A stretch of DNA of 64,000 nucleotides from Verrucomicrobiota bacterium (GTDB taxonomy: Bacteria; Verrucomicrobiota; Verrucomicrobiia; Limisphaerales; JAFGQR01), in assembly GCA_016935555.1 (NCBI GenBank), contig JAFGQR010000011.1:21011-85010 (forward strand), written 5' to 3'. The notes under the pieces were generated by a model that saw nothing but the letters and a program-made list of their open reading frames with translations, searched no databases and was not told the DNA's origin. Both the position numbers and the translations under genes were made by a program. Below, one piece after another: positions 6,078 to 64,000 of this stretch (position 1 is the first letter of the stretch; every line of letters begins with the position of its first letter).

Positions 6078-9549
<3,472 letters not shown>

Positions 9550-11024: not shown

Positions 11025-11183
11025 GGATCGGGCCCGTGAACGATCGCGGGCTGAAGCGCGCTGAAGCCCGCGCCCCGGGAGCGGGGTGCGGCATTGGGCC
11101 CGCTCCGCGTCTCGTCGAAGCGCGCGGGCTGGAAGGTTCTTGCGGTTCATGAATCTGCGGAGGCCCGGGGCGGCAGTCGGATC

Positions 11184-42716: not shown

Positions 42717-42740
42717 CGTGTTTGTTGTCGTGCCCCACCC

Positions 42741-43919: not shown

Positions 43920-44335
43920 AGCTGGAGTTGCGTGCCACGTTGGAGGAGGTCATGCGCGCCGTCGAAGCCCTGCGGGAATTCGCCAGCGCCCAGGGCGTTC
44001 CGGAAAAGACCACCCTCGGCCTGGCCCTGGCGCTCGAAGAGTGCGCCGCCAATATCGTCAATCACGCTTATCAACGCAGCGCCCAACAGCGCTTTCAAGT
44101 CCTCCTCGAACGGCATGACGACTCCCTGCTCATCGAACTGCGCGACCGCGGGCCGGAATTTGATCCCACCGCCGTGCCGCCACGCGACCAGCGAGCGATC
44201 GACCAAGACGGGCCGGGCGGCTGGGGCATCGACCTGGCGCGGCGTCACGTGGACGAGATTCGCTACCGGCGCGAAGCCGGGGAGAACATTCTGCGCCTGC
44301 ACAAGCGGCTTGTCGCGCCCGCCGGCCGGGCGTAA
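43916..44335 (+). CDS. RsbW/SpoIIAB-like anti-sigma-type serine protein kinase (HATPase_c_2)
   Basis: The start shares an ATGA overlap with the PP2C gene. It has an N-box (LEECAANIVNHAY), DRGPEFDP and a G-box (GGWGIDLARRHVDEI). Confidence 0.85.
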   Translation: MKLELRATLEEVMRAVEALREFASAQGVPEKTTLGLALALEECAANIVNHAYQRSAQQRFQVLLERHDDSLLIELRDRGPEFDPTAVPPRDQRAIDQDGPGGWGIDLARRHVDEIRYRREAGENILRLHKRLVAPAGRA

Positions 44336-44391
44336 CCTCCAACTCCAGTGTCAACCAAGTCCGACTGCCAAACCAAAGAGTCCAAACCCCC

Positions 44392-44778
44392 ATGCCACTC
44401 GACATTCAAATCCAAAAGAATCCCACCGGCGAGAACGCTGCCGCTCTGACCGTCACACTGATCGGCAGCCTCGACACCGTCACTGCGCCCGACCTGGAGC
44501 GCCAGCTTGCCCCCTGGCTGGGCGGTCCCGTCGCGGACATCGTCTTTGACCTGGCCCAGCTGAAATTCATCAGCAGCGCAGGCCTGCGCGTGTTCTCCGT
44601 CACGCGCAAGACGCTCAAGGAACGCGGGGGGCAGGCGTCGTTCCTGAACTTGCAGCCGCAGATCAGGGAAGTGTTTGACATCATCAAGGCCTTGCCCGGC
44701 GTGGCCATTTTCAAGGATGTCGCCGAACTGGACCGTTACCTGGCAGCGCGTCAACGCTCGCATCGGGAGGCGACCTAG
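44392..44778 (+). CDS. STAS-domain anti-sigma-factor antagonist (RsbV/SpoIIAA-like)
   Basis: The 128-aa protein carries DLAQLKFISSAGLRVF, with the conserved phosphorylatable Ser position. Confidence 0.9.
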   Translation: MPLDIQIQKNPTGENAAALTVTLIGSLDTVTAPDLERQLAPWLGGPVADIVFDLAQLKFISSAGLRVFSVTRKTLKERGGQASFLNLQPQIREVFDIIKALPGVAIFKDVAELDRYLAARQRSHREAT

Positions 44779-44787
44779 CCTGCATGG

Positions 44788-44807
44788 CTCACCAGGTTCC
44801 TGGTGAG
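44788..44807 (+). terminator. Possible stem-loop after STAS gene (CTCACCAGG-tt-CCTGGTGAG)
   Basis: A perfect 9-bp inverted repeat lies 10 nt after the stop codon. There is no U-tract, so its terminator function is uncertain. Confidence 0.25.
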
Positions 44808-44951
44808 AGGACATTTGCTCGCGCGCTTCGAGGACCTGCGGCGACGGGAGATGCTGGACGAGAGCCCCGCTGCGTTGGTGGCGAAGACCTGCATCTGATC
44901 GTCATCGCTGCCGCAACTGGCGGTTGCCCGCAGCTCTCCGGTGCCGGCTCC

Positions 44952-46619: not shown

Positions 46620-47061
46620 CGCCTTGAAATACCCGACTTGGTTATCCCCTCCCAGGCACGCAGCCAGGGCCGGAACGAGTCGAAGCGCTTGGAGTGGCAT
46701 CGATGGATGGACGCCCAACGCACGCGCTTATTCAGCCCCGCCGAAACACCCAATCCATTCGCGCCGGCTGAGCATCTGCGCGGCGCGCTCGGCAAAGGGC
46801 CTGTTGCCGGGCGCGTCCGGTCCGGGCGCGCCCAGGCGGGCCGCGCGTTGTCCGTCCCGGTGGGAGAGGGTGTCTTGTTTGGACAGGCGGCCCGCTGGCG
46901 CCCGAGGAACAGGGGCATGTGCAACTCGCAATCGATGTTGGTGGCGGCCCGGATCATTTGAAAGTCCAGATCCGCCGACGTGGTCAACCGCCGTGGGTCG
47001 AAGGCCCTGCAGGAAATAACCTTGATCCAAGCCGCCCCTCGTTCTATAACGTCCCCTGATC

Positions 47062-48033
47062 ATGGCCCTATGCGACCCGAACCGCAACAGCGAGGCTCCC
47101 AGTCAGAGGCCCGCAACTCAAAGGGCCAAGACGCGGGCACGACTCGCCGCACCGCTGGCGCTCCTGGCGTGGCTCGCCACGGCATGCGCCCCCGGACTCA
47201 GATCGATGAATCCCCAAGCGACATTCCCCGATGAAGCCAACGGCTGGCGTGCCGCAGACCGCATACGCGCGTTCGACCGGAGCACCATCTTCGAATACAT
47301 GGACGGCGCCGGTGAACTCTATCTGGCCTACGACTTCCGGCGCGTCCTCGTCCGGGAATACACCAGGCCCGGCGCCCGGCGGATCATCGCCGAGGTCTAC
47401 GACATGTCCAGCAGTCAGGATGCCTACGGCGTGTTCACGCACGATCCCGAGGGCGAAGACGTGGGCGTGGGCCAGGATAACGCCTACGCCGCCGGGCTTC
47501 TGTGCTTTTGGAAAGGACCGCGCTTCGTTCGCATCCTGGCCGAACAGGAAACCCCGCAGGCCAGGCAGGCCGTCATCACCCTGGGCCGGTCGCTCGCGGA
47601 AGGGGTTGCCGAGGGGCCGCGGCCCGCGCTCCTCAACCGCCTGCCCCCGGACCACCTGGCCGCCGGCAGCGCCCGCTATTTCCACACTCAAGTGTCGCTC
47701 AATTATTTCTATTACCTGGCCGATGCCAATGTGTTGCGCCTTTCGCCGCAGACCGAAGTGGTGATGGCCGTCTACCGGCCCAAGGGCGAGAAGATCACGC
47801 TGCTGATCGTTTCCTACGAAAGCCGGCGGCAGGCGCAGCAGGCCTATCGCCAGTTCGGCCGGCTTTACCTGGAGGACACGGCGGAAGCGGACCGGTCGCC
47901 CCGAATCGAGGCGCTTGAAGGCGGGCGCCACGTGGGCGCGCTTCTCAAGGGCCAGTGTGTCGCGCTGGTCTTTGACGCCGTCTCACGGGCCGCCTGCGAG
48001 CGGTTGCTGGCCGGCGCGGCGGCGGCTTTATAA
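47062..48033 (+). CDS. Hypothetical lipoprotein (unknown family)
   Basis: The 323-aa protein has a lipobox-like LAWLATAC. Codon usage and composition are coherent. It is followed 17 nt later by the DUF362-like gene. Confidence 0.6.
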   Translation: MALCDPNRNSEAPSQRPATQRAKTRARLAAPLALLAWLATACAPGLRSMNPQATFPDEANGWRAADRIRAFDRSTIFEYMDGAGELYLAYDFRRVLVREYTRPGARRIIAEVYDMSSSQDAYGVFTHDPEGEDVGVGQDNAYAAGLLCFWKGPRFVRILAEQETPQARQAVITLGRSLAEGVAEGPRPALLNRLPPDHLAAGSARYFHTQVSLNYFYYLADANVLRLSPQTEVVMAVYRPKGEKITLLIVSYESRRQAQQAYRQFGRLYLEDTAEADRSPRIEALEGGRHVGALLKGQCVALVFDAVSRAACERLLAGAAAAL

Positions 48034-48050
48034 GAAAGGCAACTATAACC

Positions 48051-48932
48051 ATGAAACACTACACCCGACGGGATTTTTTGAGAGGAACCGCAGCAGGCGC
48101 CCTCGGCGCCTCGATGGGGCTTTGCCCGCGTGACGTGGCGTTTGCCGCGGAGCCGGGCGAGGCAAAAAGCAGGGTGATTCTGATCCGGGACGAACGCGCG
48201 ATGCGGGCGGACAACACGCCCGACGCCCGGGTGGTCGAGACGATGCTGAACAAGGCGGTATGCCGCCTGGCGGGAAAGGATGATCCCGCGGCCGCGTGGA
48301 AGACCTACCTGCACCCCGACGACACGGTCGGCATCAAGGTCACCCTCTACATGATCTCAACCCACAAGGAAGTCATCGACGCGGTTCGCGCGGGGGCCCA
48401 AAAGGCCGGCGTCCCGGACGGGAAGATCCTGGTCGGCGACCGCGGGAATTCGCCCGGGAAAGACACCCCCGTCACCGCCCTGGTCAACGTGCCAAGTCTC
48501 AAGGCCCATCACATGTCCGGCATCGGCTGCGTCATCAAGAACTACATCGTCTACCATCCCCAACCCGCGTCGCTGCACCCCGATTCCTGCGCCGAGTTGG
48601 GCGCCGCGTGGGAGGTTCCGGCCATCAAGGGCAAGACGCGCCTGGTGGTCGTCGACGGGTTGTTCCCCCTCTTCGACAAAGGCCCCCAGGTCACCCCGAA
48701 ATACCGCTGGCCCTACGGCGGCATCCTCGTCGGCACCGACCCCGTGGCCGTCGATGCCGTCTGCCTCCGCATCCTGCAGGCCAAGCGCGATGCCTTCCGG
48801 GGCGAACCGTGGCCCCTGAACCCGCCGCCCAAGAGCCTTGCCGTCGCCGACACGAAATATCACCTGGGCACGAGCGCTCCCGAGAAAATCCACCTCCTCA
48901 AGCTCGGCTGGGACCGCGACGCCTTCGTGTGA
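48051..48932 (+). CDS. TAT-signal DUF362-like protein
   Basis: It begins MKHYTRRDFLRGTAAGALGA (twin-arginine). It has DUF362-like stretches (VGIKV...; NVPSLKAHHMSGIGCVIKN; GTDPVAVDAVCLRIL). The family was recalled from memory. Confidence 0.7.
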   Translation: MKHYTRRDFLRGTAAGALGASMGLCPRDVAFAAEPGEAKSRVILIRDERAMRADNTPDARVVETMLNKAVCRLAGKDDPAAAWKTYLHPDDTVGIKVTLYMISTHKEVIDAVRAGAQKAGVPDGKILVGDRGNSPGKDTPVTALVNVPSLKAHHMSGIGCVIKNYIVYHPQPASLHPDSCAELGAAWEVPAIKGKTRLVVVDGLFPLFDKGPQVTPKYRWPYGGILVGTDPVAVDAVCLRILQAKRDAFRGEPWPLNPPPKSLAVADTKYHLGTSAPEKIHLLKLGWDRDAFV

Positions 48933-52151: not shown

Positions 52152-53645
52152 TCAGCTTTTCCCGGTCAGGTCCGTGGCCTTCATCCCGGCGAGTTGAGCA
52201 TAGTTTCGGAATTCGCGCTCCACGTCCCCCAGAATGAAGAGCTGGTGAAATCCGAGCACATCGCGCGTGTCTTTCACTCCGTCAAGGGCAACTTCGACGG
52301 AGGTGCGGCAGCCTCCGGCTTCCTCGTACGGGTCATGGCCCTGGGGATCGGGCTCGATGTTGCTCACGATCTTTCCCGCCCCGACGCGAATCGTGTCGTA
52401 GTGGCCGCTGGGTATCTCCATCACCGTCATGCGTTCACCCACCGGCCAGAGCACCTGGGTCGCAACGCCGCGGTCCGGTTCCTGGTGGCTTCGCAGGATA
52501 AATGGCATCGGCGGTTTGTCGAATCCCGCCAGTCTCGTGGCGCACGCGCAGTGGGCGCCCCCGAGGGTATTGTTGACCGTCAGAGGAAAGGGATCCTGTT
52601 GAAAACCGGGCCGTTGCACCAGCAAGTGGGTGAGCCGCGAACTGAGTGCCGCGTGTTCATCCGCTTCACACGCCGCCACGATCCCTTCGTCGCGCAACCG
52701 TGAAAAGGCAAGGCAGGGCTCCCACAGATGACCTTTGGAACCGATCGGCCGTGAGACCAACGGCAGGCAGTTTATCGAAATCCCATCGCACTTCTCCTCC
52801 TCCATCAGTGCACGCAGCACCACGTAGATGTTGGCCGCGTTCAGCACGTCTTCCCCGGTCGGTTCGATGATCGCCTTGGCGTTCTTCTGATAGTAATCGG
52901 CTATGGCCCGGACCTTCTCCGTGACGACGCTTTTATGCGCCATGTCGCACAGGGCCTGTTCCGGGTAGTCAAGCAGTTTCGTGCCCAGATGCTCCACGGT
53001 CTTCTCAGCCTTCTTATTGCCCTTTACGATCAGCAAACGCGTCTGCTTCATCCGCCACACGCTGTTCAGCATCCGCAAGCCGTGGGCCAGCCAGTTTTCG
53101 TGTTGGAAGGCACTCACAAAGACGCCGGCAATGCCGCGCGTTGCTTGGAGGTGGCCCGTGAACGAAGTGCCGACAGGACTGAAGAGAATGGTGGGTATGT
53201 TGCCACGTTCCTTTGCGATGCGGTTGAGGTGGGGCCACGCTTGATTGAGGCTCATTGCGGTGACAATGAGGCCGTCGGGATTCTCCTCTTGGACGGTCTT
53301 CAGGAACGCGGTAACGGCGTTTTCATCCTTCAGCGGCTCCTGCGTAAGACGCAGATCCACCCCCAGGTCTTTCGCCGCGCCCCGCAATATCCGGGTGTAG
53401 TGCTCTTGATGGACCGCGTTGTCCCAATCGGCTCCCGGCCACCCCATGAAGTAGCGGTTCTGATCCGGCCGGGCAAATCCGGCCCGCACCACGGGTTTGC
53501 CGCCCGGCGGAGACGCGGCAAACATCGACGAAGCAACCTCAAACAAGTCCAAGTGCGCCGCGGTGGCCGCCGCACCGGCCGTGGTCAGGAACTTCCGCCG
53601 GCTCATCGGACATCCCAAACATTTCATTCCGTTTCGCGTTTTCAT
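52152..53645 (-). CDS. TAT-signal protein with sugar-isomerase (FucI/AraA)-like features (tentative)
   Basis: It carries a twin-arginine motif (MSRRKFLTTAGAAATAAHL). The C-terminal half has isomerase-like segments (CDGISINCLP...GIVAACEADEHAAL). Start options are 53684, 53645, 53627 and 53606. Confidence 0.55.
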   Translation of the reverse strand: MKTRNGMKCLGCPMSRRKFLTTAGAAATAAHLDLFEVASSMFAASPPGGKPVVRAGFARPDQNRYFMGWPGADWDNAVHQEHYTRILRGAAKDLGVDLRLTQEPLKDENAVTAFLKTVQEENPDGLIVTAMSLNQAWPHLNRIAKERGNIPTILFSPVGTSFTGHLQATRGIAGVFVSAFQHENWLAHGLRMLNSVWRMKQTRLLIVKGNKKAEKTVEHLGTKLLDYPEQALCDMAHKSVVTEKVRAIADYYQKNAKAIIEPTGEDVLNAANIYVVLRALMEEEKCDGISINCLPLVSRPIGSKGHLWEPCLAFSRLRDEGIVAACEADEHAALSSRLTHLLVQRPGFQQDPFPLTVNNTLGGAHCACATRLAGFDKPPMPFILRSHQEPDRGVATQVLWPVGERMTVMEIPSGHYDTIRVGAGKIVSNIEPDPQGHDPYEEAGGCRTSVEVALDGVKDTRDVLGFHQLFILGDVEREFRNYAQLAGMKATDLTGKS

Positions 53646-54002
53646 GATGATCCCTTTCGCTGATGGAAAGTCTGATTCCCGCACACGAAACCGAGCCTAA
53701 CATTGGCCGAATGGTAAATCAAGAGGCTAACGACCCACCCCTGTTCAAGGGGCGCATCGCAGTGTTTGGCGTAGTGCGCCCCGGTTGTGAAGGGCATCGC
53801 ATGCCACTGCGAACCAAGCAGGTTGCGCGAGAATGGGTGGTTCCTCACGCCGTATGGCCCCGTTCTCAGGCCCGAAAGGCGAACCACGGTCAAGCCACAG
53901 GGGAATTGGTTCGCTTCGGCCAGGCTTATGCTAATCTGCAGTTGCATCTTGCAGTTGCCGTCTTTGGACCATGGTCGCCATCTGCAGCCGGCGGGGGGGG
54001 GA

Positions 54003-54815
54003 TTAGACGTAGGTCTTCTCCAACAACGCAGCTGCACTTTCGTCGAGCATTTCCCGCCGGCGCATTTCCTCAAAGCGCGCAAGCAAATCCGGCACACGAA
54101 GGCGCTGTTTGTCGGCTCCTTCGAACCGACAGGCCACGGCGCCGCGATGCACCATTACGATGCGGTCGCCAAGGTTGACGGCTTGCTGCATGGAGTGGGT
54201 GACCATGAGCGTGGTGAGCTTGTGCCGGCTGACGATGTCTGCAGTGGCACGAATAAGCAGATCGGCGCTCTTGGGATCCAGCGCGGCAGTGTGTTCGTCC
54301 AAGAGCAGCAATGCTGGCTTGAGCCATGTGGCCATCAGTAGCGTGAGCGCCTGGCGCTGACCGCCGGAGAGACTGCCGATGGCGTTGCCGAGCCGGTCTT
54401 CCAAACCCATTCGCAATTCTCGGACGCGGTCGCGGAGTTCGTCCATGAGTCTTCTGGAGAGCGCCCAGCCCAGGCCGCGTCCCTGGCCGCGACGGGCGGC
54501 GAGGGCGAAGTTCTCGGCGATGGACATGTTCGGTGCGGTGCCGGTGAAAGGGTTCTGGAACACGCGACCGATCAGCCGCGCCCGCCGATGTTCCGGCCAG
54601 CGCGTGATGTTCTCTCCGGCCAGTTCGATCTTGCCTTGGTCGAGTTGAAACGTGCCGGCGACGGCGTTCAACAAAGTGGATTTGCCAGAACCGTTGCCAC
54701 CGAGGATGATCAGGAACGCGCCTTCCGGAATGGTGAGGCTGACTCCGCGCAGCGCGCGGACCTCGTTCACAGTACCCGCGTTGAAAGTTTTGCAGATGTT
54801 GGAGACAGTAAGCAT
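54003..54815 (-). CDS. ABC transporter ATP-binding protein (COG1101-type, partner of COG4120/COG2984 systems)
   Basis: It has Walker A (GGNGSGKSTLL), the signature motif (LSGGQRQALTLLMA), Walker B (LLLLDEHTAALD) and an H-loop (MVTHS). Confidence 0.9.
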   Translation of the reverse strand: MLTVSNICKTFNAGTVNEVRALRGVSLTIPEGAFLIILGGNGSGKSTLLNAVAGTFQLDQGKIELAGENITRWPEHRRARLIGRVFQNPFTGTAPNMSIAENFALAARRGQGRGLGWALSRRLMDELRDRVRELRMGLEDRLGNAIGSLSGGQRQALTLLMATWLKPALLLLDEHTAALDPKSADLLIRATADIVSRHKLTTLMVTHSMQQAVNLGDRIVMVHRGAVACRFEGADKQRLRVPDLLARFEEMRRREMLDESAAALLEKTYV

Positions 54816-54824
54816 GGCGTCCCT

Positions 54825-55769
54825 TTACGACTGACTCTGTGGTTTGGCGAGCGTCGCGGCCCTTTTCCGGCGTTGCAGCAACTGCGGCAACACCAGCGCG
54901 GCAAACACAAACAAGGCCGTGACCAGTTTGAGATCGTTGGGGTTCAATCCCCAGCGCAATGCGATGGCCACGAGCAGACGGAACAGAACCGAGCCGGCGA
55001 CTGCTCCGTAAATCGCCAGCCCCAGACTGCGCGAGCCGGTGAGCGACTCGCCGATGATGACGCTGGCCAGTCCCCAGACGACCATGCCGATTCCCATCTG
55101 TGCGTCGGCGAAGCCTTGGTACTGGGCCAACAAGCCGCCGGCCAGTGCGACGAGGCCGTTGGACAGCGCCAAACCCATGATGCAATAACGTTGAACGTTG
55201 ACGCCAAGCGCGCGGATCATCTGCGGATTGTCACCCGACGCACGCATCGCAGTGCCGAGTTCTGTTCGGAAGAACCAATACAACACCAGGCAGGCTGCGA
55301 CGATCAGGCTGATTACGATCAGCAGCATGGCCAGATCGCGCGCACCGACCAGCCAACCCATCACGTTCACCTCTGGCGCGCGGAACCATGAGTGGCCCAG
55401 CCGCTCCGCCCATTTGGTGGAACTGTCCGCCCCCAGCAACGGCACGTTGCTCTTGCCCATGACGTGCAGGTTCACCGAGTAAAGGCCGGTCATGACCAAA
55501 ATGCCCGCCAGCAGGGAATTGATGTTGAACTTCGTATGCAACACACCAGTCACCGCGCCCGCCACGAGTCCGCCGCCAAATCCGGCGAGTGTGGCGAACA
55601 ACGGATTGACATGCTTGATCAACAACACCGCGCAGATGGCAGCGCCCAACGTGATCGAGCCGTCCACGGTGATGTCAGCGATGCCAAAGACGCGGTAACT
55701 GATGTAGATCCCCAGCGCCAGGAGCGACAGGATCAATCCGATGGTTAATGCTCCGAGCAACAAAGTCAT
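54825..55769 (-). CDS. ABC transporter permease (COG4120-type)
   Basis: The 314-aa polytopic protein begins MTLLLGALTIGLILSLLALGIYISYRVFGIADITVDGSITLGAA, which is typical of this permease family. Confidence 0.9.
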   Translation of the reverse strand: MTLLLGALTIGLILSLLALGIYISYRVFGIADITVDGSITLGAAICAVLLIKHVNPLFATLAGFGGGLVAGAVTGVLHTKFNINSLLAGILVMTGLYSVNLHVMGKSNVPLLGADSSTKWAERLGHSWFRAPEVNVMGWLVGARDLAMLLIVISLIVAACLVLYWFFRTELGTAMRASGDNPQMIRALGVNVQRYCIMGLALSNGLVALAGGLLAQYQGFADAQMGIGMVVWGLASVIIGESLTGSRSLGLAIYGAVAGSVLFRLLVAIALRWGLNPNDLKLVTALFVFAALVLPQLLQRRKRAATLAKPQSQS

Positions 55770-55781
55770 AAGCGGATTGGG

Positions 55782-57032
55782 TCACGTCACCAGCGGCGCG
55801 CACCAGCAGGCGCCGCGAAAGAAACAACTCTCGCCAGCGCCGTTGGGGTCGCGCCAATCGTTCAGCAGATGCAGCACGCCCAGCACGTGCTCGCTTTCAA
55901 ACAGCGGCTCGAGTGATTCCGCCAAGCTCACCTTGCCTTTGCGGAGCGGACGATACGGGAAGGCCGCCGCGTGGAAGTGGCCGCAGATGTCGCCCGTGAG
56001 GACCAGCGGTTTAAGCAATCGCGGATGCAACGCACGTGAGCCGGTGGCTGCGAGGCCGACGATGAGGCTGACGGAATTGGCGAACGCCGCTTCAGCGGTG
56101 AAGCTCAACCAGTCACGCACCTCCGGGAAGGCAAAAAGGTTTCGCGCACCGGTGACTACTGGCGGGCTGGCAGGCGTCTTTTGCAGCGACGCGCCCACCA
56201 GTGAAGCCGTCTCCGCCAACATGACGATGCCTGCCGCGTCGGTGTTTGCAGCGTCGAGACAGGCTTTGATCACGGCGCTCAAGGTCAGACTGGATTGCTC
56301 CGGGCCTTTGTCGAATCGCAGCAGCCGCGCAAAACCACCACGGCAAACAACGCCGTAGGCGACCTTCACCGTCGGCGTCAGCGCGCCTTGAAGCAGCATG
56401 TAATCCGGCTTGTTGGCACCGTCAGCTGGCTGGCAAACGACGGCACCGCCTGCGCCGAGAAATTCACCGAATGCCGCGCCTTCCAGGTCGCTGGTCGAAG
56501 CGAAAGCGCCAAGGCCGAGACCGATTGTATCCGCAGCAAACGCGACGTTTTCACAGTCGGCGTCCTTCGCGGTGCCTTCAAGCCACGCTGCTGAATCTCC
56601 GGGCCATTGAACGCGGAGCGTCGCGCCGGGGTTCAACTCGAACAGTTGCGCTGTTGCGCCCGCTGGCGGCAGCGCGACGTGCTGGGTGGGTCGTTCGGGC
56701 GCTGCCGTTGCCATTACTCTTGCCGTGTCTTCGCCAACGTGAAGCCGCGTCTCCAGGCCCACCAGCTTCAAGACACTGCGCACAGCGCTCGACGCCCTGG
56801 CGATGATGAGCCGCCCTTGAATGGCGTTGAGCTGACGCGAGTGCAGCACGAGAATCCGGATGCCGGCGGAGCTGAGGTAGTCCACGTCCATCATGTCAAG
56901 CGCGATGACGTGGTAGCCGGCGCGCACCGATTCGGTCAGGGCATTGGCGACGTGGTCGCTCCAGACGGCGTCCATGCGGCCTTTGAGCTTCAGGTCGAGT
57001 TGATCGTCGCGTGCTGTGCGAGTGATTTCCAT
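55782..57032 (-). CDS. STAS-domain protein fused to a ~300-aa C-terminal domain of unknown function, encoded inside the ABC operon
   Basis: The N-terminal ~105 aa are STAS (LDLKLKGRMDAVWSDHV...ALDMMDVDYLSSAGIRILVLHSRQL...SAVRSVLKLVGL). I cannot assign the remainder (...GAFASTSDLEGAAFGEFLGAGGAVVCQPADG...GHFHAAAFPYRPL...) to any family. Confidence 0.8.
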   Translation of the reverse strand: MEITRTARDDQLDLKLKGRMDAVWSDHVANALTESVRAGYHVIALDMMDVDYLSSAGIRILVLHSRQLNAIQGRLIIARASSAVRSVLKLVGLETRLHVGEDTARVMATAAPERPTQHVALPPAGATAQLFELNPGATLRVQWPGDSAAWLEGTAKDADCENVAFAADTIGLGLGAFASTSDLEGAAFGEFLGAGGAVVCQPADGANKPDYMLLQGALTPTVKVAYGVVCRGGFARLLRFDKGPEQSSLTLSAVIKACLDAANTDAAGIVMLAETASLVGASLQKTPASPPVVTGARNLFAFPEVRDWLSFTAEAAFANSVSLIVGLAATGSRALHPRLLKPLVLTGDICGHFHAAAFPYRPLRKGKVSLAESLEPLFESEHVLGVLHLLNDWRDPNGAGESCFFRGACWCAPLVT

Positions 57033-57043
57033 GAGCAGCGTGG

Positions 57044-60001
57044 TTAGGGTTTGGTCGGGTCGGAGATTTCTTGCGCCTGCCGCAACAGCTCATCCGGGAT
57101 GGTGATGCGAACCGCTTGGGCGTTCCTCGCGTTCACCAGCGTCTGCACCTTACGCGGTGGAGAGAACGGAATTCGCGCCGGACTCTCTCCGCGTATCAGG
57201 GCAGCGACTTTAAACGCAGTCTCTCGTCCGGCGTCGTAATAGTCGCGGGCCAGTGCCACGGCGGCGCCCTGTTTGACGCCGGCCCCGTGGCAACTGAACA
57301 GCGGCAACCGCGCTTGTTCCGTGGCGCGCGCGATGATGGGGAAGCCAGCGACCGAAAGGTTGTCAATGATCTGAACCACGGCATCCAGCCGGCGGCCGCA
57401 CAGTGACAGCGCCGCGTCGGCCAACTCCCCCGCGCAGTTGGCCGCGACGGTTTCCACCGTTAATCCGCAACGAACGGCTTCGCGGACGAACATTTCCTTG
57501 TTCGCCACGGAGTTTGCCTCCGCCGGACAAAACAGCGTTCCGACGTGCTTGAACTGAGGGAAATATGTTCGCAACAACTCCGCCATTTCCCGGTACGGCC
57601 CGAGTGTGTAAACGCCCGTGATGTTCGGCAGATGGTCCTGATCCGATTGGCCCGCGCCCGCGACGAACGGGTCGGCCACGACCGTGAACACGATGGGCGT
57701 GTCACGAACCTTCTGTATACCGGCTTGGAGTGCCGGCGTGCCATAGACGACATAGAGGTCCACACCTGCCGTCTTGGCGGAATCATAAAGCGAGCTGATT
57801 GCCGCCATGTCACCTTGGGCTGACAACGTTTTCATCGTGAAGTTCACCCCGTCCTTCAAACCCGCCTCCTTCAAACCGTCCGTCAGCCCGCGCATGGCGT
57901 CCTCGACCATGACGGATTCGATGTAGGAAAGCTGCTGGATCCGCCACTTTCTTGCCGGTGGTTGCGCGACGGGTGGGGCCGGCGGCTTTTCGAGCGTTTG
58001 CATGGCCAGCACCGCAGGCGGGAAGGTGACGCCCAGTTTGCGTGCGACGTCCATGTTCAGGATCACCTTCTCGTCGCTCACGTTTCGCATCGGAATTCTC
58101 GCGGGCTCCTCGCCTTGAAGCACGCGAGCGAGCGGTTCGGCAGCGGCGAAACCAGCCGCGTAGTAGCCAACACCCACCACGGCCAGCGCGCCGCGATTGC
58201 AAAAGTCCGGCGAGTCAATGACCACCGGAATGCGCGTGGTGGCGAGTTGGCCGGCGAGGCCGTCGAACGCCTGGTAAGCCGTGTTGTCGCCGGGGATATA
58301 CACCGCTTCCACACGCCGGGCAGCGAGCGATTGCGCAGCTTGCACCACCTCGCTCGTATTGTTCGCAATGGCCTCGACCAGTTCGACGCCGTGCTTCGGG
58401 CACAACTCCCGCAGCACCGTGACCACCTTCACCGAGTTGGCCTCGGCGTTGTTGTAGAGCGTCCCGAGCCGTCGGAATGTCGGGAACGTGAGCTTTAACA
58501 TCGTGACCGCTTTCTCAATGGGCGGGAACGAGCCGATCCCGGTGACGAACGGCAGGTGATCCTCGAAGCTCTTGCCCGCGCCGGCGGCAATCGGATCCGT
58601 GCAGTAAGTGAAAACGACGGGTTTGTGGCGCACGCCAGCGCAAGCGGCCGTCAGCACGGGCGTCGAAAACGTGGAGATCACGTCCGCGTCGCTTGCGTCG
58701 AGTGACTGCAGCATCGCCGGGATGCTGCCAATCTCGCCGTTGGCATGCATCTTCTGAACCTCAAGATTTTGTCCTTCGACAACACCGAGCTTTCGCAGTC
58801 CATCCATCAGTCCAGCAATGGTGCTGTCCGTGCCTTCGTCAGGACCAAAGTAAGCGATGCCGATTTTGAACGGGCGGCCGGATTTGGAAACAACCGGACG
58901 CGGCTTGCTCTGGGTGGCGACGGACGCGGTTTGGTGGACATCTTTTTCCACGTTGCCGTCTTCTCCGAGGATGAGTGCAGCGCGGGCACGCAGATCGTCG
59001 GTAAACCGCCACGGGTCGCGAAGGTTCTTGAGAACTTGTTTGTTCAACATCAGGTGCTCGGGCATGAAGTTGGTGATGACCAGCGTGGCGGAGTCGACGC
59101 CGCCAAGGATCCCGGCGGCAATGTCGCCCACCACTTCGCCAACTTCAAAGTAGTTTGCGCCGAGATCGAAAAGTGAGCCGTCGCGTACGTTGCCCGAAGT
59201 GTTGGAAAAGACGGGAATCCTGGCCCGGCTCGCCGAGCCGGTGAGCGCAGTGATCGCGTTGAGCACCGTCACATCCGCGCCCGCCCAGAAGGCCTGCGCG
59301 CCGCGCGCCACCAGCGAATCCGCGGCTTCGCGCACGTCCTTGCTCTGGTCCACGTTGGCTTCGAGCAACTGGATGCCCAGTTCCTTGCAGACCTTCCGGG
59401 CTTTGGCGGTGCAGACCTCGGAATTGGCTTCAGCGGGGTTCCAAACGACTCCGACGACTTTCAGGTCGGGCCACTGCCGCCTGGCTTCGCGCAAAATCGA
59501 TTCCACCGGTTGGAACGTGCCGACGCCGGCCAGCCACGGCGGTTTGTTGGTGGAATTCATTTGCCGGATGCCGACGCCCGCGGCGGCGGGATCCGTCACG
59601 CCGCCGAAAACATGAATGGCGCGGCCATCCTTGTTGGCGTTGGCCACGCATTGGAGCGAAAGAGTGCTGATGGAGATCACCATCTTGAAACTGCCGTCGG
59701 TAACGCGCTTGGCTATGGTGTTGGCCGTCGGCAGATCGCCCTCGGCGCTGAACCGTTGCAGGGCGATGCGTCCACCGTCCTCGTAACCGGCGGCGGCGAG
59801 CCGAGCCAGAATGCCGCGCTCCACTTCATCCAGCAACGCGATTGAAGCGTGCTTGAGAATGGCGACGGGAATCTTCGCCTGCGCCGACAACGCGCCATTG
59901 CGCGCCCTTTCACGCGAATGGAGGTCCGACAATAGCAGCGTCAACGCCGCCGCCACGAGCAGGACCAGCGACAGGAAAACACGGCTAAAAACTTGTTTCA
60001 T
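57044..60001 (-). CDS. Membrane-anchored ABC substrate-binding protein with three tandem COG2984/PF04392-type domains
   Basis: The start is set at MKQVFSRVFLSLVLLVAAALTLLL (TM anchor). Three homologous modules each contain a TDP-AAG-G box and a PAEANS box. Module 1: VFGGVTDPAAAGVG...VWNPAEANSEV. Module 2: VVFTYCTDPIAAGAG...LYNNAEANSVK. Module 3: IVFTVVADPFVAGAG...LFCPAEANSVA. Confidence 0.85.
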   Translation of the reverse strand: MKQVFSRVFLSLVLLVAAALTLLLSDLHSRERARNGALSAQAKIPVAILKHASIALLDEVERGILARLAAAGYEDGGRIALQRFSAEGDLPTANTIAKRVTDGSFKMVISISTLSLQCVANANKDGRAIHVFGGVTDPAAAGVGIRQMNSTNKPPWLAGVGTFQPVESILREARRQWPDLKVVGVVWNPAEANSEVCTAKARKVCKELGIQLLEANVDQSKDVREAADSLVARGAQAFWAGADVTVLNAITALTGSASRARIPVFSNTSGNVRDGSLFDLGANYFEVGEVVGDIAAGILGGVDSATLVITNFMPEHLMLNKQVLKNLRDPWRFTDDLRARAALILGEDGNVEKDVHQTASVATQSKPRPVVSKSGRPFKIGIAYFGPDEGTDSTIAGLMDGLRKLGVVEGQNLEVQKMHANGEIGSIPAMLQSLDASDADVISTFSTPVLTAACAGVRHKPVVFTYCTDPIAAGAGKSFEDHLPFVTGIGSFPPIEKAVTMLKLTFPTFRRLGTLYNNAEANSVKVVTVLRELCPKHGVELVEAIANNTSEVVQAAQSLAARRVEAVYIPGDNTAYQAFDGLAGQLATTRIPVVIDSPDFCNRGALAVVGVGYYAAGFAAAEPLARVLQGEEPARIPMRNVSDEKVILNMDVARKLGVTFPPAVLAMQTLEKPPAPPVAQPPARKWRIQQLSYIESVMVEDAMRGLTDGLKEAGLKDGVNFTMKTLSAQGDMAAISSLYDSAKTAGVDLYVVYGTPALQAGIQKVRDTPIVFTVVADPFVAGAGQSDQDHLPNITGVYTLGPYREMAELLRTYFPQFKHVGTLFCPAEANSVANKEMFVREAVRCGLTVETVAANCAGELADAALSLCGRRLDAVVQIIDNLSVAGFPIIARATEQARLPLFSCHGAGVKQGAAVALARDYYDAGRETAFKVAALIRGESPARIPFSPPRKVQTLVNARNAQAVRITIPDELLRQAQEISDPTKP

Positions 60002-60030
60002 GATGGGAAAGGCCGCGCGCTTCTGAGCTT

Positions 60031-60072
60031 TTGACCAGTTGCAGGTTCCATTGGGTTGTCGCGTTGACCAGT
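60031..60072. promoter_or_regulatory. Direct repeat TTGACCAGT (60031-60039 and 60064-60072) in the divergent ABC-operon/STAS intergenic region
   Basis: The repeat was read directly, with 33 nt start-to-start spacing. It may be an operator or a pair of -35-like elements. This is speculative. Confidence 0.2.
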
Positions 60073-60198
60073 GCCGTATTTTGAATCTCGTCGCCCGGAC
60101 CGGCAAGCCTGAATTGTCATTTGGCGCCGGTAAACTTCCCTTGTCGTTTTCTGCTGCGAAGTGCAGACTGGCCCGTGTGCGGCAATGGCAGGTGAACC

Positions 60199-60531
60199 AT
60201 GGAAACTCAGAACTTGGCTAACGCAACTGTCGTAAAACTGATCGAACGAATTGATTCGGTCTCGTCCCGGGAGGTTGAAGCCACTCTCCAAAACATCATT
60301 GTCGGCGGAGCACGCAATGTCATCTGCGACTTCGCGGCGGCCAAATACATCTCCAGCGCGGGACTGCGCGTGTTGTTGGTCGTGGCCAAGACGCTCAAAA
60401 AGGGCGGGGGGCAGTTGCTCATCGTGTGCGCCAGGACCGGATATGTTTATGAGGTCTTGGAAACGGCCGGTTTCACCAGCATGATCCCGGTGTTCGCATC
60501 CGTCGCCGAAGCCACTCAGGCGGCCAAGTGA
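60199..60531 (+). CDS. Single-domain STAS anti-sigma-factor-antagonist-like protein
   Basis: The 110-aa protein carries DFAAAKYISSAGLRVLLVVAKTLKKGGGQ. This closely parallels the STAS protein at 44392 (DLAQLKFISSAGLRVFSVTRKTLKERGGQ). Confidence 0.85.
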   Translation: METQNLANATVVKLIERIDSVSSREVEATLQNIIVGGARNVICDFAAAKYISSAGLRVLLVVAKTLKKGGGQLLIVCARTGYVYEVLETAGFTSMIPVFASVAEATQAAK

Positions 60532-60550
60532 CGCACAATCCTCGCTTCGC

Positions 60551-61015
60551 ATGAAAACCACCGTCGCTGATGTCATTTTGAAGTTCCTGGAAGCCGAGGG
60601 TGTGGAGTACTTGTTCGGGATTCCGGGCACAACCATAGTGCCGTTGCTGGACGCCACGAACCGCAATAAAGCCGTCCGGCCCATCCTGACCAAGCATGAG
60701 GAAGGCGCGGCTTTCATGGCGGACGGCTACGCGCGGGTCAAATGTGGGATCGGGGCTTGTTTCGCGACCTCCGGTCCCGGCGCCACCAATCTGGTGAGCG
60801 GCGTGGCCAATGCTTACATGGACAATGTGCCGATTCTCGTCATGACCGGCCAAGTCGAGACATCCCTCTATGGCAAGGGCGCGTTCCAGGATTCGTCCAA
60901 AGCCGGCGTTGATGCGGTCAAAATGTTTGATCGTCAGACTATTGATCGAATACTCAAAGGAGACTTGACCAGACATCGGACTTCAATCCATATGCGCATC
61001 CACAAGACACCGTGA
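60551..61015 (+). pseudogene. Truncated thiamine-diphosphate enzyme (acetolactate-synthase-like), N-terminal TPP_enzyme_N domain only
   Basis: The sequence VADVILKFLEAEGVEYLFGIPGTTIVPLLDA...HEEGAAFMADGYARV...ATSGPGATNLVSGVANAYMDNVPILVMTGQV is the N-terminal Pyr domain. Similarity stops near 60930, where GC drops, and a stop codon follows at 61013-61015. Confidence 0.6.
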
Positions 61016-61130
61016 AATGGGAAGCTAGGCCACCATCATGGCGTGTGGAAGAATGGCACAACCAGTCGTGGGAGCTAACTGCGTTTCGCTCCGCTCCACA
61101 GAGTCGCTCCACTGGAGGTTCGATGACAAA

Positions 61131-61448
61131 ATGGTGAAAAGAATCCTGACGCAATATTTCAGTACTTGGTGGTTACCTGCATTTGTGTACACCTGCTTTT
61201 TTAGCGGCTACACGATCACAGCGATTCTGCGATGGAAGCCGCTAGGCTTTGTTGCCAATGTGCTGTTCTGCATGGCAGTGGCAGGGTTTTTGGGACTGAT
61301 TGCCGCATGCACATGGAACCTGACGAAGAAAGGATCGGGTAAAGGTATCATCAATCTCTTTCTCATCCTGGGCTGTGGTGCGGCCACGTTCTTCACCTTT
61401 GGCCTTCTGATGTTTGCCTGCACGGGTTCCGGTTCGCGCCCTTTTTGA
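61131..61448 (+). CDS. Hypothetical small membrane protein
   Basis: Starting at MVKRILTQYFSTWW, it has 3 predicted hydrophobic helices. It sits in low-GC context with no recognisable family. Confidence 0.35.
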   Translation: MVKRILTQYFSTWWLPAFVYTCFFSGYTITAILRWKPLGFVANVLFCMAVAGFLGLIAACTWNLTKKGSGKGIINLFLILGCGAATFFTFGLLMFACTGSGSRPF

Positions 61449-61572
61449 CAATCTCGAAGATGGCGCGACTGTGGGCGAGTTTCTGGAGTGGTTCCCAGGC
61501 GTCACTCGGGCTCAGGTGGAGGCCGTGCTCGAACACGCCTCGGCGAGCCTTGCCACCGAAGCGCTTGGATGA
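61414..61572 (+). pseudogene. 5'-truncated DUF433-like antitoxin fragment
   Basis: My translation gives ...ARVPVRALFDNLEDGATVGEFLEWFPGVTRAQVEAVLEHASASL. It resembles the C-terminal two-thirds of DUF433 proteins. The frame opens only at 61411 and overlaps the preceding membrane ORF. Confidence 0.4.
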
Positions 61573-61886
61573 AGATCTTTTTTGACCAAGGCACGCCCCT
61601 CCCGTTGCGGCGGCATCTCCATCCCCATGAGGTGGATAGTGCTGCAGAGCGTGGCTGGTCAACACTGCAAAATGGGGAGCTGCTGGACCAGGCCGAGGGT
61701 GCCGGATATGAGGCGTTTATCACGCCCGACCAGCATCTCCGACACCAACAGCATCTGGTGGGACGGCGGATTCGAGTGATGGTGTTGATGACGACTTCAT
61801 GGCCTCGAATGCAGCGGAGGGTGGGAGAGATGCGCACCATGCTCGAGAGGCTCGCGGAGGGAGGTTATGTGGAAGGCACCTTTTAG
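61569..61886 (+). CDS. PIN-like (DUF5615-type) putative toxin
   Basis: MKIFFDQGTPLPLRRHL...LQNGELLDQAEGAGYEAFITPDQHL resembles DUF5615/Mut7-C-like partners of DUF433. It shares an ATGA overlap with the upstream fragment. The family was recalled from memory. Confidence 0.45.
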   Translation: MKIFFDQGTPLPLRRHLHPHEVDSAAERGWSTLQNGELLDQAEGAGYEAFITPDQHLRHQQHLVGRRIRVMVLMTTSWPRMQRRVGEMRTMLERLAEGGYVEGTF

Positions 61887-62611
61887 AGGCTGATCTGCTT
61901 CGCTGGGCCCAATGTTGAAGAGTTCGATCGTGCTTCGGGTGTATACGGGACGTTGTTCGCGCGATTCTCGCGATTGGTCAGCTTGCCACCGAACTGCGCT
62001 CACCAGCGGGGCGGATTATCAGGACTCCTCCGAGCTGTCGCGGGTGACGGGGTGAAAGTTGCGCGCACAAATTGGGGTCACGTCTGGACAATAGATTCTG
62101 ATGAAATGCCTTAGGTTTTTCATCAGAATCAACATTCAACATTCTGGTCGTATGCTGCGCTGGCGTCGGCTCTGCTGCTGGTGGGCGGTCTGGGATTGGG
62201 CGGGGTGCTGTGGCAGCGGCGGCAGTCCGTGCGCAAGGAGCAGCGGGCATTGGCCATGGTCCAGCAGATGCGGATGCAGCAAGCCGAGGCGCGATACCAG
62301 ATTGAGCCTTCGGATCCGCTGGACCCGGAGACGTTCTACGAACAGCGCCGTGCGCTAACGCTTCTGCACAGCGTGTTGGACCGGCTGCAGGCGGAATTCG
62401 CCGCCGCGGGTCGCCGCTAATGCGCCGCGACAGCGGACAGTGCTCGACGGCACGCGCCTGCCTCTTCCATCCTCCGAGCCTCCACAGGTGCCACCGGAGT
62501 TGCTGTTCAGTGACGACTCGGGGGCGCGCCTCGTGTCGGCCCGCCTGTGCAAAAACTCTGTACCAACAGTTCTTTGGCGAATTGGGTATTTATATAAGTT
62601 CTTGTGGGAGC

Positions 62612-62749: not shown

Positions 62750-64000
62750 TCAACCCTTTTCGTTGAGGACCTTGACGAAAACCGCGGTGAGGTCGTCCTC
62801 CTGGGGGCAATCCCCGGCAAACTCGCGCACGGCCTGATAGAGCAGCTTGACGAGGGTTTGGGCGGGCTCGTGGCGTTTGGCGCGGACGAGGTCGAGCATG
62901 CGTTCGGTGCCGAACAACTCGTCGCGGGCATTGACGCTTTCCTCGATGCCGTCGGTGGACAGCAGGAGGATATCGCCCGGTTTGAGGGGCAGTTCGGGGG
63001 AGGAGCGGTAGGTGGTGTCGGGGTGGAGTCCGAGCGGCATGCCGCTGGGGGCCAGCCGGTGCTTGACGTGACCGTCGCTGCCGATGAGGTGGGCTGGCGG
63101 GTGGCCGGCGCTGGCGTAAATCAGGGTGCGGTTTTTGGGGTCGAGAGCGGCCCAGAAGAGGGTGATGTAGCGTTCGCGGCCGACGTCTTCGGCGAGGACG
63201 GCGTTGGCCACGCTGAGGATTTCGCCGGGATCATCGCGGCGTTTGCTCACCAGCCGCAGGTAAGCCCGCGTCTCCGCCATCAGCATCGCCGGTCCCACCC
63301 CGTGGCCGGTCACGTCGCCGACGACGATGCCGAGGCGTCCGCGGAGCATGGGCAGGTAATCGAAGTAATCGCCCCCGGTGGCTTCGGTGGGGTAGGAGGT
63401 GCCGCTGATGTCGAAGCCTTTGAGTGCGGGAGCGCTTTTGGGAAAGAGATGCTGCTGGATTTCGCGGGCGACACGGAACTGTTCCTGGTGGTCGCGCAGT
63501 TCCCGTTCGGCGCGTTTGCGTTCGGTGATGTCGCGGACGAACCCGACGAAGCGGCGTTCGCCATCGAGGATCATGTCGCTGTAGCTGACCTCGATGGGGA
63601 TTTGGGCGCCGTCCTTGCGCAAGCCGACGGTTTCGGTGGCGCGCCAGTTCATGCGTTTGATGCCGGTTTGGAGGTAGCGGGTGATGCCGGTGCGGTGGCT
63701 GCCGCGCAGCCGTTCGGGCTGGAGCATGGTCAGGTCGCTGCCAATGAGTTCCTCCGGCGCGTAGCCGAACACGTCGCGCACCGCCGGGTTCACGAACAGG
63801 ATCCGGCCCTCCGGGTTCATGAGGATGACGGCGTCCGGGCAGGTTTCCCACAGCAGGCGGTAGCGCTGTTCGCTTTCGCGCAGGGCTTTCTTGGCGTCGC
63901 GCTGGCTGGCGCGGATGGAGGCTTCGCGCAGTTCGCGTTCCACGGCGGGGACCAGCCGGTTCAAGTTGCCTTTCATCAGGTAATCGTGGGCGCCGGCCTT
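62750..64000 (-). CDS. REC-PAS-PP2C (SpoIIE-type) phosphatase response regulator (N-terminus beyond right edge)
   Basis: It has a PAS domain (YRLLWETCPDAVILMNPEGRILFVNPAV...VRDITERKRAE) and a PP2C domain (REIQQHLFP...GGDYFDY...VGDVTGHGVGPAMLM...STDGIEES...DDLTAVFVKV). The reverse complement of 63961-64000 reads KAGAHDYLMKGNLN, which is the end of a receiver domain. Confidence 0.85.
   Translation of the reverse strand, partial: KAGAHDYLMKGNLNRLVPAVERELREASIRASQRDAKKALRESEQRYRLLWETCPDAVILMNPEGRILFVNPAVRDVFGYAPEELIGSDLTMLQPERLRGSHRTGITRYLQTGIKRMNWRATETVGLRKDGAQIPIEVSYSDMILDGERRFVGFVRDITERKRAERELRDHQEQFRVAREIQQHLFPKSAPALKGFDISGTSYPTEATGGDYFDYLPMLRGRLGIVVGDVTGHGVGPAMLMAETRAYLRLVSKRRDDPGEILSVANAVLAEDVGRERYITLFWAALDPKNRTLIYASAGHPPAHLIGSDGHVKHRLAPSGMPLGLHPDTTYRSSPELPLKPGDILLLSTDGIEESVNARDELFGTERMLDLVRAKRHEPAQTLVKLLYQAVREFAGDCPQEDDLTAVFVKVLNEKG

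Follow-up and report, generated by a model that had tools for sequence, protein, structure and literature searches.

The locus considered here occupies positions 54,003 to 60,531 of a 64,000-nucleotide stretch (the window) of contig JAFGQR010000011.1 of a Verrucomicrobiota bacterium (NCBI GenBank assembly GCA_016935555.1, positions 21,011 to 85,010 of the forward strand), and consists of an operon for an ATP-binding cassette (ABC) importer, among whose genes stands one for a STAS fusion protein, and of a divergently transcribed gene for a single-domain STAS protein (Table 1). An initial annotation of this DNA had proposed that the locus is an output branch of a partner-switching network, with a transporter rather than a sigma factor as its effector. 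The list of open reading frames (ORFs) and the Pfam and NCBIfam matches bear out its description of four tightly packed minus-strand genes, which encode a substrate-binding protein (SBP) of family PF04392, the STAS-fusion protein, a permease and an ATPase, and which are separated, counting from the ATPase gene, by gaps of 9, 12 and 11 nt. The transporter components are those of PF04392/TrpXYZ-type importers, namely a PF04392 SBP, then a single BPD_transp_2 permease, then a single ATPase, in the same order. The SBP is built of three tandem domains with a mutual identity of 25-32%, and the NCBIfam TrpX-type model (NF041285, an equivalog) exceeds its cutoff of 390 bits, with 447 bits, only because the score is summed over three stretches. 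Its start is placed at ATG 60001 (MKQVF...), a start conserved among the relatives as TCATGAAACA, and the longer ORF back to TTG 60106, given by a mechanical ORF call, was rejected on this ground; the spacer that separates the operon from the divergent STAS gene is therefore 197 bp long, as originally described. The absence of a kinase, a phosphatase or a sigma factor from the locus, also stated at the outset, holds for the whole of 54003-60531.

The operon was followed in its relatives by a genome scan, with one genome per species, in which all six-frame ORFs of the related loci were searched with iterated profiles seeded from the window proteins. The scan gave 66 loci, and the 64 loci with the fusion gene (related loci are designated here by L numbers) come from Verrucomicrobiota, Planctomycetota, Acidobacteriota, Binatia, Deltaproteobacteria, Gemmatimonadota, Bacillota and a metagenome-assembled genome labelled as Cyanobacteria, that is, from at least seven phyla. 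The synteny of STAS and ABC genes in relatives, on which the initial annotation had staked its proposal beforehand, is very strong: the permease gene lies directly downstream of the fusion gene in 62 of the 64 loci, the ATPase gene directly downstream in the operon in 61 of 64, and a PF04392 SBP gene, with one to four tandem domains, directly upstream in 55 of the 59 loci with enough upstream sequence. The gene order SBP (1-4 domains)/STAS-fusion/permease/ATPase is essentially universal among the 64 loci, and chance adjacency is excluded by this synteny. ATPases about 50% identical to that of the window are found in Salinivibrio and Collinsella in plain three-gene operons (SBP, permease, ATPase) that have no fusion gene, so that the fusion gene is, by this comparison, to be read as an insertion that defines a distinct operon variant.

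The fusion protein is cytoplasmic and has 416 residues. Its initial description as a STAS fusion was correct as to the STAS domain but missed that two-thirds of the protein form a separate, conserved, enzyme-like domain, which we call FUSC. A protein search with the 416-aa query returned about 2000 matches, of which the best 120 are all about 415 aa long and carry at most the annotation ‘STAS domain-containing protein’ or ‘anti-anti-sigma factor’, and a second search, with an acidobacterial member as the query, brought in another large clade. When the C-terminal 306 residues were used alone in a filter-free search, 747 representative clusters were matched at E<=1e-3 (541 at E<=1e-10), nearly all of them 400-430 aa long and matched at residues ~115-410; these lengths and this match position indicate that the FUSC domain exists essentially only as a STAS fusion. 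Sequence homology of this domain to known families, including Pfam AAL_decarboxy and DUF1907, was rejected, as three diverse members gave no Pfam match to it even at E<=10, a PDB profile search with the fusion protein found STAS proteins only, and an hhalign comparison with Bacillus subtilis AlsD (whose sequence is identical to PDB 5xne) gave a non-significant E=0.25. The link to acetolactate decarboxylase (ALDC) and C11orf54 is consequently a purely structural one. The AlphaFold2 model of the fusion protein, based on a 35-sequence alignment, has a mean predicted local distance difference test score (pLDDT) of 80 and a predicted template modelling score (pTM) of 0.81. Compared by Foldseek with the PDB, its N-terminus has as its closest solved structures SpoIIAA and RsbV, also in complex with SpoIIAB and RsbW, and its C-terminus matches human PTD012/C11orf54 (1xcr, E=5e-6) and the acetolactate decarboxylases 6j92 (E=2e-5, TM 0.66 on the target) and 5xne.

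The conserved residues of the STAS domain in the fusion protein make it look like a functional switch. All 65 family members, drawn from all loci, have Ser54 and Ser55, and Ser55 aligns with Ser58 of SpoIIAA, which is phosphorylated, with Ser56 of RsbV and with Thr52 of MlaB, in what we take to be the reference sequences of these proteins; the serines of the ISSAG motif in both small STAS proteins of the window likewise align with SpoIIAA S58 and RsbV S56. In the C-terminal domain, all 62 complete sequences have H352, H354 and H388, which fall in the invariant block GHFHAAAFPY...LHLLNDWR, and E190, D210, R394, R406 and W410 are near-invariant among the 65 members, so that this site, too, looks functional. 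ALDC and C11orf54 have a common fold and a zinc site made up of a His-x-His motif and a third His (PMC12337341, PMC9090609); in the fusion protein the third His (H388) stands 34 residues past the HxH motif, as against about 10 in ALDC and C11orf54, with a predicted helix in between.

Genes of partner switches are concentrated around the operon. Counted in the 36 loci that have 3 kb or more of sequence on either side, an RsbW-like gene is found within 5 kb in 18 loci, a single-domain STAS gene in 21, a PP2C gene in nine, and at least one of these three in 23. With the outer flanks of the same loci as an internal control, the density per 100 kb is 18.2 within 1 kb as against 1.2 at 5-7.5 kb for RsbW-like genes, 29.7 as against 1.2 for single STAS genes, and 11.5 as against 0.6 for PP2C genes, which amounts to a 15- to 25-fold peak at the operon edge overall (about 19-fold for PP2C). 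The arrangements vary by lineage, from divergent upstream to co-directional downstream genes and fusions, and these differences argue for repeated selection for linkage. For example, L001 has, in this order, a divergent upstream kinase gene, an NMT1-like SBP gene, a dCache-HAMP-SpoIIE gene, the operon and a STAS gene; in L023 (8209-8913) HATPase_c_2 and STAS are joined in one Pfam-confirmed ORF directly after the ATPase gene; and in L070 (12360-14120) a 586-aa MFS and HATPase_c_2 fusion overlaps the stop codon of the ATPase gene, which would tether a serine kinase to a second transporter. An ORF similar to the kinase-STAS fusion of L023 is also seen in L034 (12819-13757), the Pfam confirmation applying to L023 only. 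The kinase of the window and the linked kinases of the relatives keep the residues that match E46, N50, D81, G107 and G109 of what we take to be the SpoIIAB reference sequence. A linked sigma factor as the output of the switch was rejected, since jackhmmer, started from B. subtilis SigF and SigW, found no ORF of the sigma-70 family in the 64-kb window and seven in the related loci, at no fixed position.

Sensor genes accompany the partner-switch genes in several lineages. In Occallatibacter riparius (L074, CP093313.1, 5619791-5637020) a kinase gene (6260-6676 of L074) and a STAS gene are co-directional with genes for a Cache-bearing methyl-accepting chemotaxis protein (MCP), CheR, CheW and CheA-REC, and in L075 the ATPase gene is followed by a STAS gene and then by REC-SpoIIE, CheB, CheA, CheW and CheR genes. 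All five Che components (CheA, CheB, CheR, CheW and MCP) are encoded within 10 kb of the operon in L005, L055, L056 and L058, four of the five in L038, L065, L074 and L075, and partial sets occur in L019 and L028 (MCPs only) and in L026 (a CheR/CheB ORF). Several Acidobacteriota and Verrucomicrobiota have such Che-like clusters next to the operon, which suggests a chemosensory pathway whose output is not motility. Seven loci (L001, L008, L009, L011, L012, L018 and L020) have an NMT1-type (thiamine/pyrimidine-like) SBP gene before a dCache-HAMP-PP2C gene just upstream of the operon, and its product is possibly a co-sensor for the phosphatase. The amino-acid-binding dCache motif, whose canonical form we take to be R-x-W-Y, is absent both from the hybrid histidine kinase of the window (RQEWY) and from the PP2C of L001 (QDWY).

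The RsbW-like kinase and the two PP2C phosphatases that had been noted elsewhere in the window are indeed encoded there. The number of STAS proteins had been given as two, which is right for the locus itself, but a third STAS gene directly after the kinase gene had gone unmentioned. This gene (type B), the kinase gene, a REC-PP2C gene and the gene of a hybrid histidine kinase form a module about 10 kb from the operon, in which the hybrid kinase is likely the input to the REC-PP2C; its architecture parallels the dCache-HAMP-PP2C fusions and the Cache-MCP/Che clusters that adjoin the operon in relatives, and a REC-SpoIIE gene adjoins the operon in L075. The divergent STAS protein of the locus (type A), which has a counterpart at the matching position in L069, is 81% and 76% identical to the products of STAS genes in L007 and L019, and these genes follow an RsbW-like gene that sits between the STAS and the SBP gene and is divergent from the latter. 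By this comparison, the window and L069 have lost or moved the kinase gene adjacent to type A. The best matches of the type-B protein (37-47% identity over the full length) are STAS proteins encoded directly after the ATPase gene in L001, L004-L009 and L018-L020 and, further, directly before the SBP gene in L022, L024 and L036; a type-B-like STAS gene directly after the ATPase gene is found in at least 14 relatives.

The closest relative, L069 (83% protein identity), has the hybrid kinase, REC-PP2C, kinase and type-B STAS genes about 2 kb from the type-A STAS gene and the operon. In blastn comparisons, positions 2-3720 of L069 correspond to 41049-44764 of the window in the same orientation, and 5319-11050 to 60930-55195 in reverse, so that the distance between the module and the ABC genes is about 10 kb in the window as against about 2 kb in L069 and their relative orientation is flipped, L069 being a short metagenomic Logan contig in which misassembly is possible. 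Right after the type-B STAS gene, the window contains an 88-nt relic (44813-44900, plus strand) that is 81% identical to the reverse complement of the 3' end of the ATPase gene (54001-54088, minus strand) and still reads in frame as ...LLARFEDLRRREMLDESPAALVAKTCI followed by a stop codon, that is, as the last ~28 residues of the ATPase; its sequence overlaps the first part of a 725-aa ORF (44784-46961) without a Pfam match. The relic is probably the scar of a rearrangement or of a decayed second copy of the operon, and a single-inversion model for the window and L069 was rejected, as the relic does not fit it. In view of the matches of the type-A and type-B proteins, the proximity in L069 and the ATPase relic, the kinase module is likely to form a functional unit with the transporter in spite of the 10 kb between them.

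Table 1. Positions of the genes, domains and sites discussed in the text, numbered from the first letter of the window unless a related locus is named
Feature	Position	Strand	Remarks
ABC ATPase	54003-54815	-	270 aa; Pfam ABC_tran E=3e-28
Permease	54825-55769	-	314 aa; BPD_transp_2, Pfam E=8e-31
STAS-fusion core accessory protein	55782-57032	-	416 aa; Pfam STAS E=2e-12
STAS domain of the fusion protein	56718-57032	-	residues 1-105; SpoIIAA/RsbV-like
FUSC domain	55785-56690	-	residues ~115-416, ~300 aa; ALDC/C11orf54-like fold
Ser55 codon, predicted phospho-acceptor	56868-56870	-	from alignment with SpoIIAA/RsbV/MlaB
Candidate metal/ligand site	55869-55979	-	H352 55977-55979, H354 55971-55973, H388 55869-55871
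Triple PF04392 SBP	57044-60001	-	985 aa; Pfam ABC_sub_bind E=2e-144, 3 stretches
SBP hydrophobic anchor or signal	~59927-59980	-	residues 8-25, N-terminal
SBP tandem PF04392 domains	D1 ~58877-59866, D2 ~57989-58876, D3 ~57047-57988	-	
Candidate sigma-70-type operon promoter	60078-60106	-	-35 TTGCCG 60101-60106, 17-nt spacer, -10 CAAAAT 60078-60083
Single-domain STAS, type A	60199-60531	+	110 aa; Pfam STAS E=1e-16; YISSAGLR phospho-acceptor motif kept
RsbW/SpoIIAB-like serine kinase, candidate STAS kinase	43916-44335	+	139 aa; HATPase_c_2 E=1e-25
Single-domain STAS, type B	44392-44778	+	128 aa; Pfam STAS E=2e-17; directly after the kinase
REC-PP2C (SpoIIE), candidate STAS-P phosphatase	42741-43919	+	Pfam Response_reg and SpoIIE
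Hybrid histidine kinase	37881-42716	+	1611 aa; dCache-HAMP-GAF-PAS-HisKA-HATPase-REC-REC-Hpt (Pfam)
PAS-PP2C (SpoIIE) phosphatase	62753-64000	-	Pfam SpoIIE E=3e-49 and PAS; cut by the window end
NMT1-type SBP gene	L001 5013-5978		

The spacer between the operon and the type-A STAS gene does contain the 9-nt direct repeat pointed out in the initial annotation, TTGACCAGT, in two copies (60031-60039 and 60064-60072). Some exact 9-nt direct repeat is, however, found in 6.6% of shuffled spacers and in 89 of 324 real 197-bp segments of this sequence, and the repeat is not kept in L069; being at chance level and not conserved, it was rejected as an operator and carries no weight as evidence. A conserved promoter-like block is, from the alignment, the better-supported DNA feature of the two. 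This candidate promoter, which was read off the alignment and which a consensus scan did not list, has its equivalents in TTGTCG-17-TACAAT of L069 and in TTGTAG-17-CACAAT of L070 and L071, whose upstream gene differs. If the promoter is real, both copies of the repeat fall inside a leader of about 70 nt.

A few other genes lie close to the locus. Just downstream of the ATPase gene, 52152-53684 (minus strand) encodes a 510-aa protein with a twin-arginine-like N-terminus (RRKFLTTAGAAATAA), no Pfam match and a faint NCBIfam match to sulfoquinovose isomerase; its presence at this position is not conserved in L070, and it is therefore probably not part of the system. The type-A STAS gene is followed by a gene (60551-61015, plus strand) for an apparently truncated thiamine-pyrophosphate enzyme of 154 aa, of which only the acetolactate-synthase-like N-terminal domain is present; L069 carries TPP_N and TPP_M fragments at the matching place, and the G+C content is 0.56 in 60001-62000 as against about 0.65 elsewhere. 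Only the closest relatives have this gene near one for a protein with a fold like that of acetolactate decarboxylase, so that the proximity is probably coincidental. In the interval between the kinase module and the operon, 47062-48932 (plus strand) carries DUF6599 and a DUF362 protein with a twin-arginine translocation signal, with no evident link to the locus.

The proposal that the locus is an output branch with a transporter as its effector is supported by the synteny, by the enrichment of kinase, STAS and PP2C genes and by the lack of a linked sigma factor. The domain content, the conserved residues, the universal gene order and this enrichment at the operon are direct observations, from which the mechanism goes on to what we infer, namely phosphorylation, docking on the ATPase, the direction of the signal and the ligand. 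The fusion protein is very probably coupled in its function to the transporter, and its control by the kinase and the PP2C phosphatases is quite probable; the model as a whole, in which a PF04392/TrpX-type importer has an obligatory fourth, cytoplasmic component and is gated by a partner switch, we consider on balance probable. By analogy with MlaB and MlaF, the unphosphorylated STAS face of the fusion protein would dock on the cytoplasmic side of the transporter, probably on the ATPase dimer, and so set its activity. Phosphorylation of Ser55 by the RsbW-like serine kinase would break this contact, and PP2C phosphatases, the activity of which would be set by extracytoplasmic Cache sensors, would restore it. 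The sensors could act directly, as parts of dCache-HAMP-PP2C fusions, or, as in the window, by way of a hybrid histidine kinase that feeds a REC-PP2C, or else through a Che-like pathway, while the small STAS proteins of types A and B would compete for the kinase, as in classical partner switching, and the ALDC-like domain would most likely bind a cytoplasmic metabolite and thus provide feedback. Since the sensor domains (Cache, PAS, REC, MCP) are on the PP2C and Che side, and the transporter operon encodes the one STAS protein that has an effector-like domain, information most plausibly flows towards the transporter. More tentatively, and with a chance that we put somewhat below even, these systems could make up a class of signal-gated ABC importers in which Cache-type sensors read extracellular cues and the three sensor routes (PP2C fusions, phosphorelay and Che-like) converge on the phosphorylation of a dedicated, metabolite-sensing STAS subunit and so switch the ATPase within seconds.

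Several points weigh against gating by a partner switch. Of the five AlphaFold2 models of the fusion protein only two are confident. A C-terminal tail of the ATPase (residues 236-270) is conserved and, following MlaF, might have been a docking element for the STAS domain; this was rejected, as the tail is also matched, to query residue 260-269, in the homologues of about 50% identity, two of which belong to ordinary three-gene operons, and is therefore family-wide. The 15- to 25-fold ratios overstate the number of independent events because the related genomes are not independent, and in 13 of the 36 loci with full flanks the 5 kb around the operon are free of partner-switch genes, so that phospho-control is either not obligatory or exerted in trans. 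No kinase gene is adjacent to the operon in the window; the only one lies about 10 kb off and has a STAS partner of its own. Lastly, the C-terminal domain has invariant His, Glu and Arg residues that resemble an active site, and the fusion protein could for this reason be primarily an enzyme.

If so, a regulated zinc enzyme of the ALDC/C11orf54 kind, either decarboxylase or hydrolase, would act on the imported compound and be switched by phosphorylation of its STAS domain, and the transporter would not be gated at all. Catabolic enzymes commonly share operons with importers. The Foldseek matches to ALDC (6j92, 5xne) and C11orf54 (1xcr) would suit such an enzyme, as would the invariant H352, H354, H388, E190, R394 and R406, which recall a site of HxH and a further His, Glu and Arg (PMC9090609, PMC12337341), and Anabaena All4160, a STAS-glycosyltransferase under the control of a PP2C phosphatase and kinases, provides a precedent (bioRxiv 10.64898/2026.04.08.717354). 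However, a sequence-level relation to ALDC was found neither by hhalign nor in Pfam, the third His is 34 residues past HxH and not about 10, the gene always lies between the SBP and the permease genes, as that of a structural subunit would, and no further catabolic genes are conserved nearby in the relatives; moreover, the ligands in solved structures of PF04392 SBPs are only the aromatic amino acids tryptophan, tyrosine and phenylalanine, and not beta-keto acids (PMC10443332). On these grounds, an enzyme beside an ungated transporter appears unlikely.

The signal could also run the other way, from a transceptor, in which the transporter and the fusion protein would sense the substrate or its flux and sequester or release the RsbW-like kinase, with the output elsewhere. 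One to four divergent SBP domains per locus could widen the range of sensing, Che-like clusters and MCPs adjoin the operon in several lineages, and a domain that looks able to bind a metabolite is fused to the STAS domain. This arrangement seems decidedly unlikely to us, since sensor domains of their own (Cache, PAS, REC) place the linked PP2C and Che proteins upstream, since no other effector, be it a sigma factor, a diguanylate cyclase or a transcription factor, is conserved near the operon, and since, among the STAS proteins, only the fusion protein has a domain that resembles an effector. Highly improbable, in our view, is a constitutive subunit of the MlaB kind, which would assemble or stabilise the ATPase on the permease and never be phosphorylated, the neighbouring genes serving unrelated circuits. 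Kinase, PP2C and STAS genes are abundant in these phyla. Such a subunit would agree with the 13 loci that have no partner-switch gene nearby, and MlaB itself works without a known kinase (PMC7367683), but it leaves aside the density peak within 1 kb relative to the outer flanks of the same loci, the co-operonic or fused kinase genes of L070 and L023, and the absolute conservation of the phospho-acceptor pair Ser-Ser. An importer gated by a partner switch is thus the reading that we prefer.

The initial annotation had also singled out the locus as a candidate for an undescribed system, and this is apparently what it is: no prior description of the operon type or of the C-terminal domain was found in the full-text literature, most subscription journals being outside its scope, and only the analogies with MlaB, All4160 and SiaABCD came to light. 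The importer type is widespread, with a family of hundreds of representative clusters in which a STAS subunit, a probable kinase, a phosphatase and a sensor are often encoded side by side. To our knowledge, only a handful of cases of post-translational control of bacterial ABC importers have been recognised, such as MalK and EIIAGlc or trans-inhibition in MetNI and ModBC, and we know of STAS-based control of an ABC ATPase only for MlaB, for which no kinase has been found. If gating by a partner switch is correct, it would be signalling, and not transcription, that controls uptake. Should the more tentatively proposed class of signal-gated importers be real, nutrient uptake would take the place of transcription or motility as what a partner switch and, in some lineages, a chemosensory pathway controls, and the first natural case of a phospho-regulated STAS-ATPase interaction, so far only hypothesised for MlaB, would be at hand. 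Phospho-regulation of STAS-ABC contacts becomes directly testable in this family, including in the cultured Occallatibacter riparius and Cerasicoccus maritimus. In addition, the operon places in a functional context, for the first time, a large domain family that lacks annotation and is now labelled only ‘STAS domain-containing protein’ or ‘anti-anti-sigma factor’, and the extension of the outputs of partner switches, and possibly of chemosensory pathways, to transport would bear on nutrient acquisition in abundant and little-studied phyla of soil and freshwater.

Among known systems, the closest parallel for a STAS protein that contacts an ABC transporter is MlaB of the Escherichia coli MlaFEDB complex, which binds the ATPase MlaF through the face that carries Thr52; the phosphomimetic exchange T52E weakens the binding, and the authors speculated on phosphoregulation with no kinase known to them (PMC7367683). 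Both systems have a cytoplasmic STAS protein encoded within an ABC transporter operon. However, MlaB is a STAS-only protein of 97 aa, whereas the protein of the present locus has 416 aa and joins its STAS domain to a domain of 300 aa; the Mla system moves lipids with the MlaE permease and an MCE protein (MlaD) and has no classical SBP, in contrast to the BPD_transp_2 permease and PF04392 SBP found here; and it has no linked kinase or phosphatase, whereas RsbW-like and PP2C genes are linked to the present operon, for which binding to the ATPase would follow by analogy. With another permease family, no MCE protein and a STAS protein that is not STAS-only, the locus is not a member of the Mla system. 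As regards the transporter itself, the SBP, permease and ATPase families are common to the locus and to the TrpXYZ-type (PF04392, ‘ABC.X4’) importers, but canonical TrpXYZ operons have one SBP domain and no STAS gene, in place of one to four tandem SBP domains and an inserted fusion gene. The best non-STAS structural matches of the fusion protein, ALDC and human C11orf54/PTD012, are zinc beta-keto-acid decarboxylases, which it resembles in the modelled position of the HxH motif and a further invariant His in the C-terminal sheet, and from which it differs by the spacing of the third His and by the lack of detectable sequence homology.

The regulatory genes are like those of the SpoIIAA/SpoIIAB/SpoIIE and RsbV/RsbW/RsbU switches of B. 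subtilis in having a STAS antagonist with an aligned Ser, a HATPase_c_2 kinase and a PP2C that bears a sensor. The classical switches of B. subtilis control a sigma factor, whereas no sigma factor is linked here and one of the STAS proteins is fused to an effector-like domain in a transporter operon; the locus is therefore not a canonical sigma-controlling Rsb or SpoIIA module. Direct control of an enzyme is known from Anabaena All4160/HenR, where a STAS-glycosyltransferase is phosphorylated by a small kinase and dephosphorylated by a PP2C (bioRxiv 10.64898/2026.04.08.717354), and from the partner-switch-like module SiaABCD of Pseudomonas aeruginosa, as described in PMC9239204, where phosphorylation of a STAS domain and its reversal by a PP2C likewise act on an enzyme directly and not on transcription. 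All4160 has the same layout as the fusion protein, with an N-terminal STAS domain and a C-terminal effector. The effectors in these two cases are a glycosyltransferase and a diguanylate cyclase, whereas here the fold is ALDC/C11orf54-like and the conserved partner is an ABC importer. The locus probably works like a partner switch with a non-sigma output, as SiaABCD and All4160 do, and possibly also through a contact between STAS protein and transporter that is akin to that of MlaB and MlaF.

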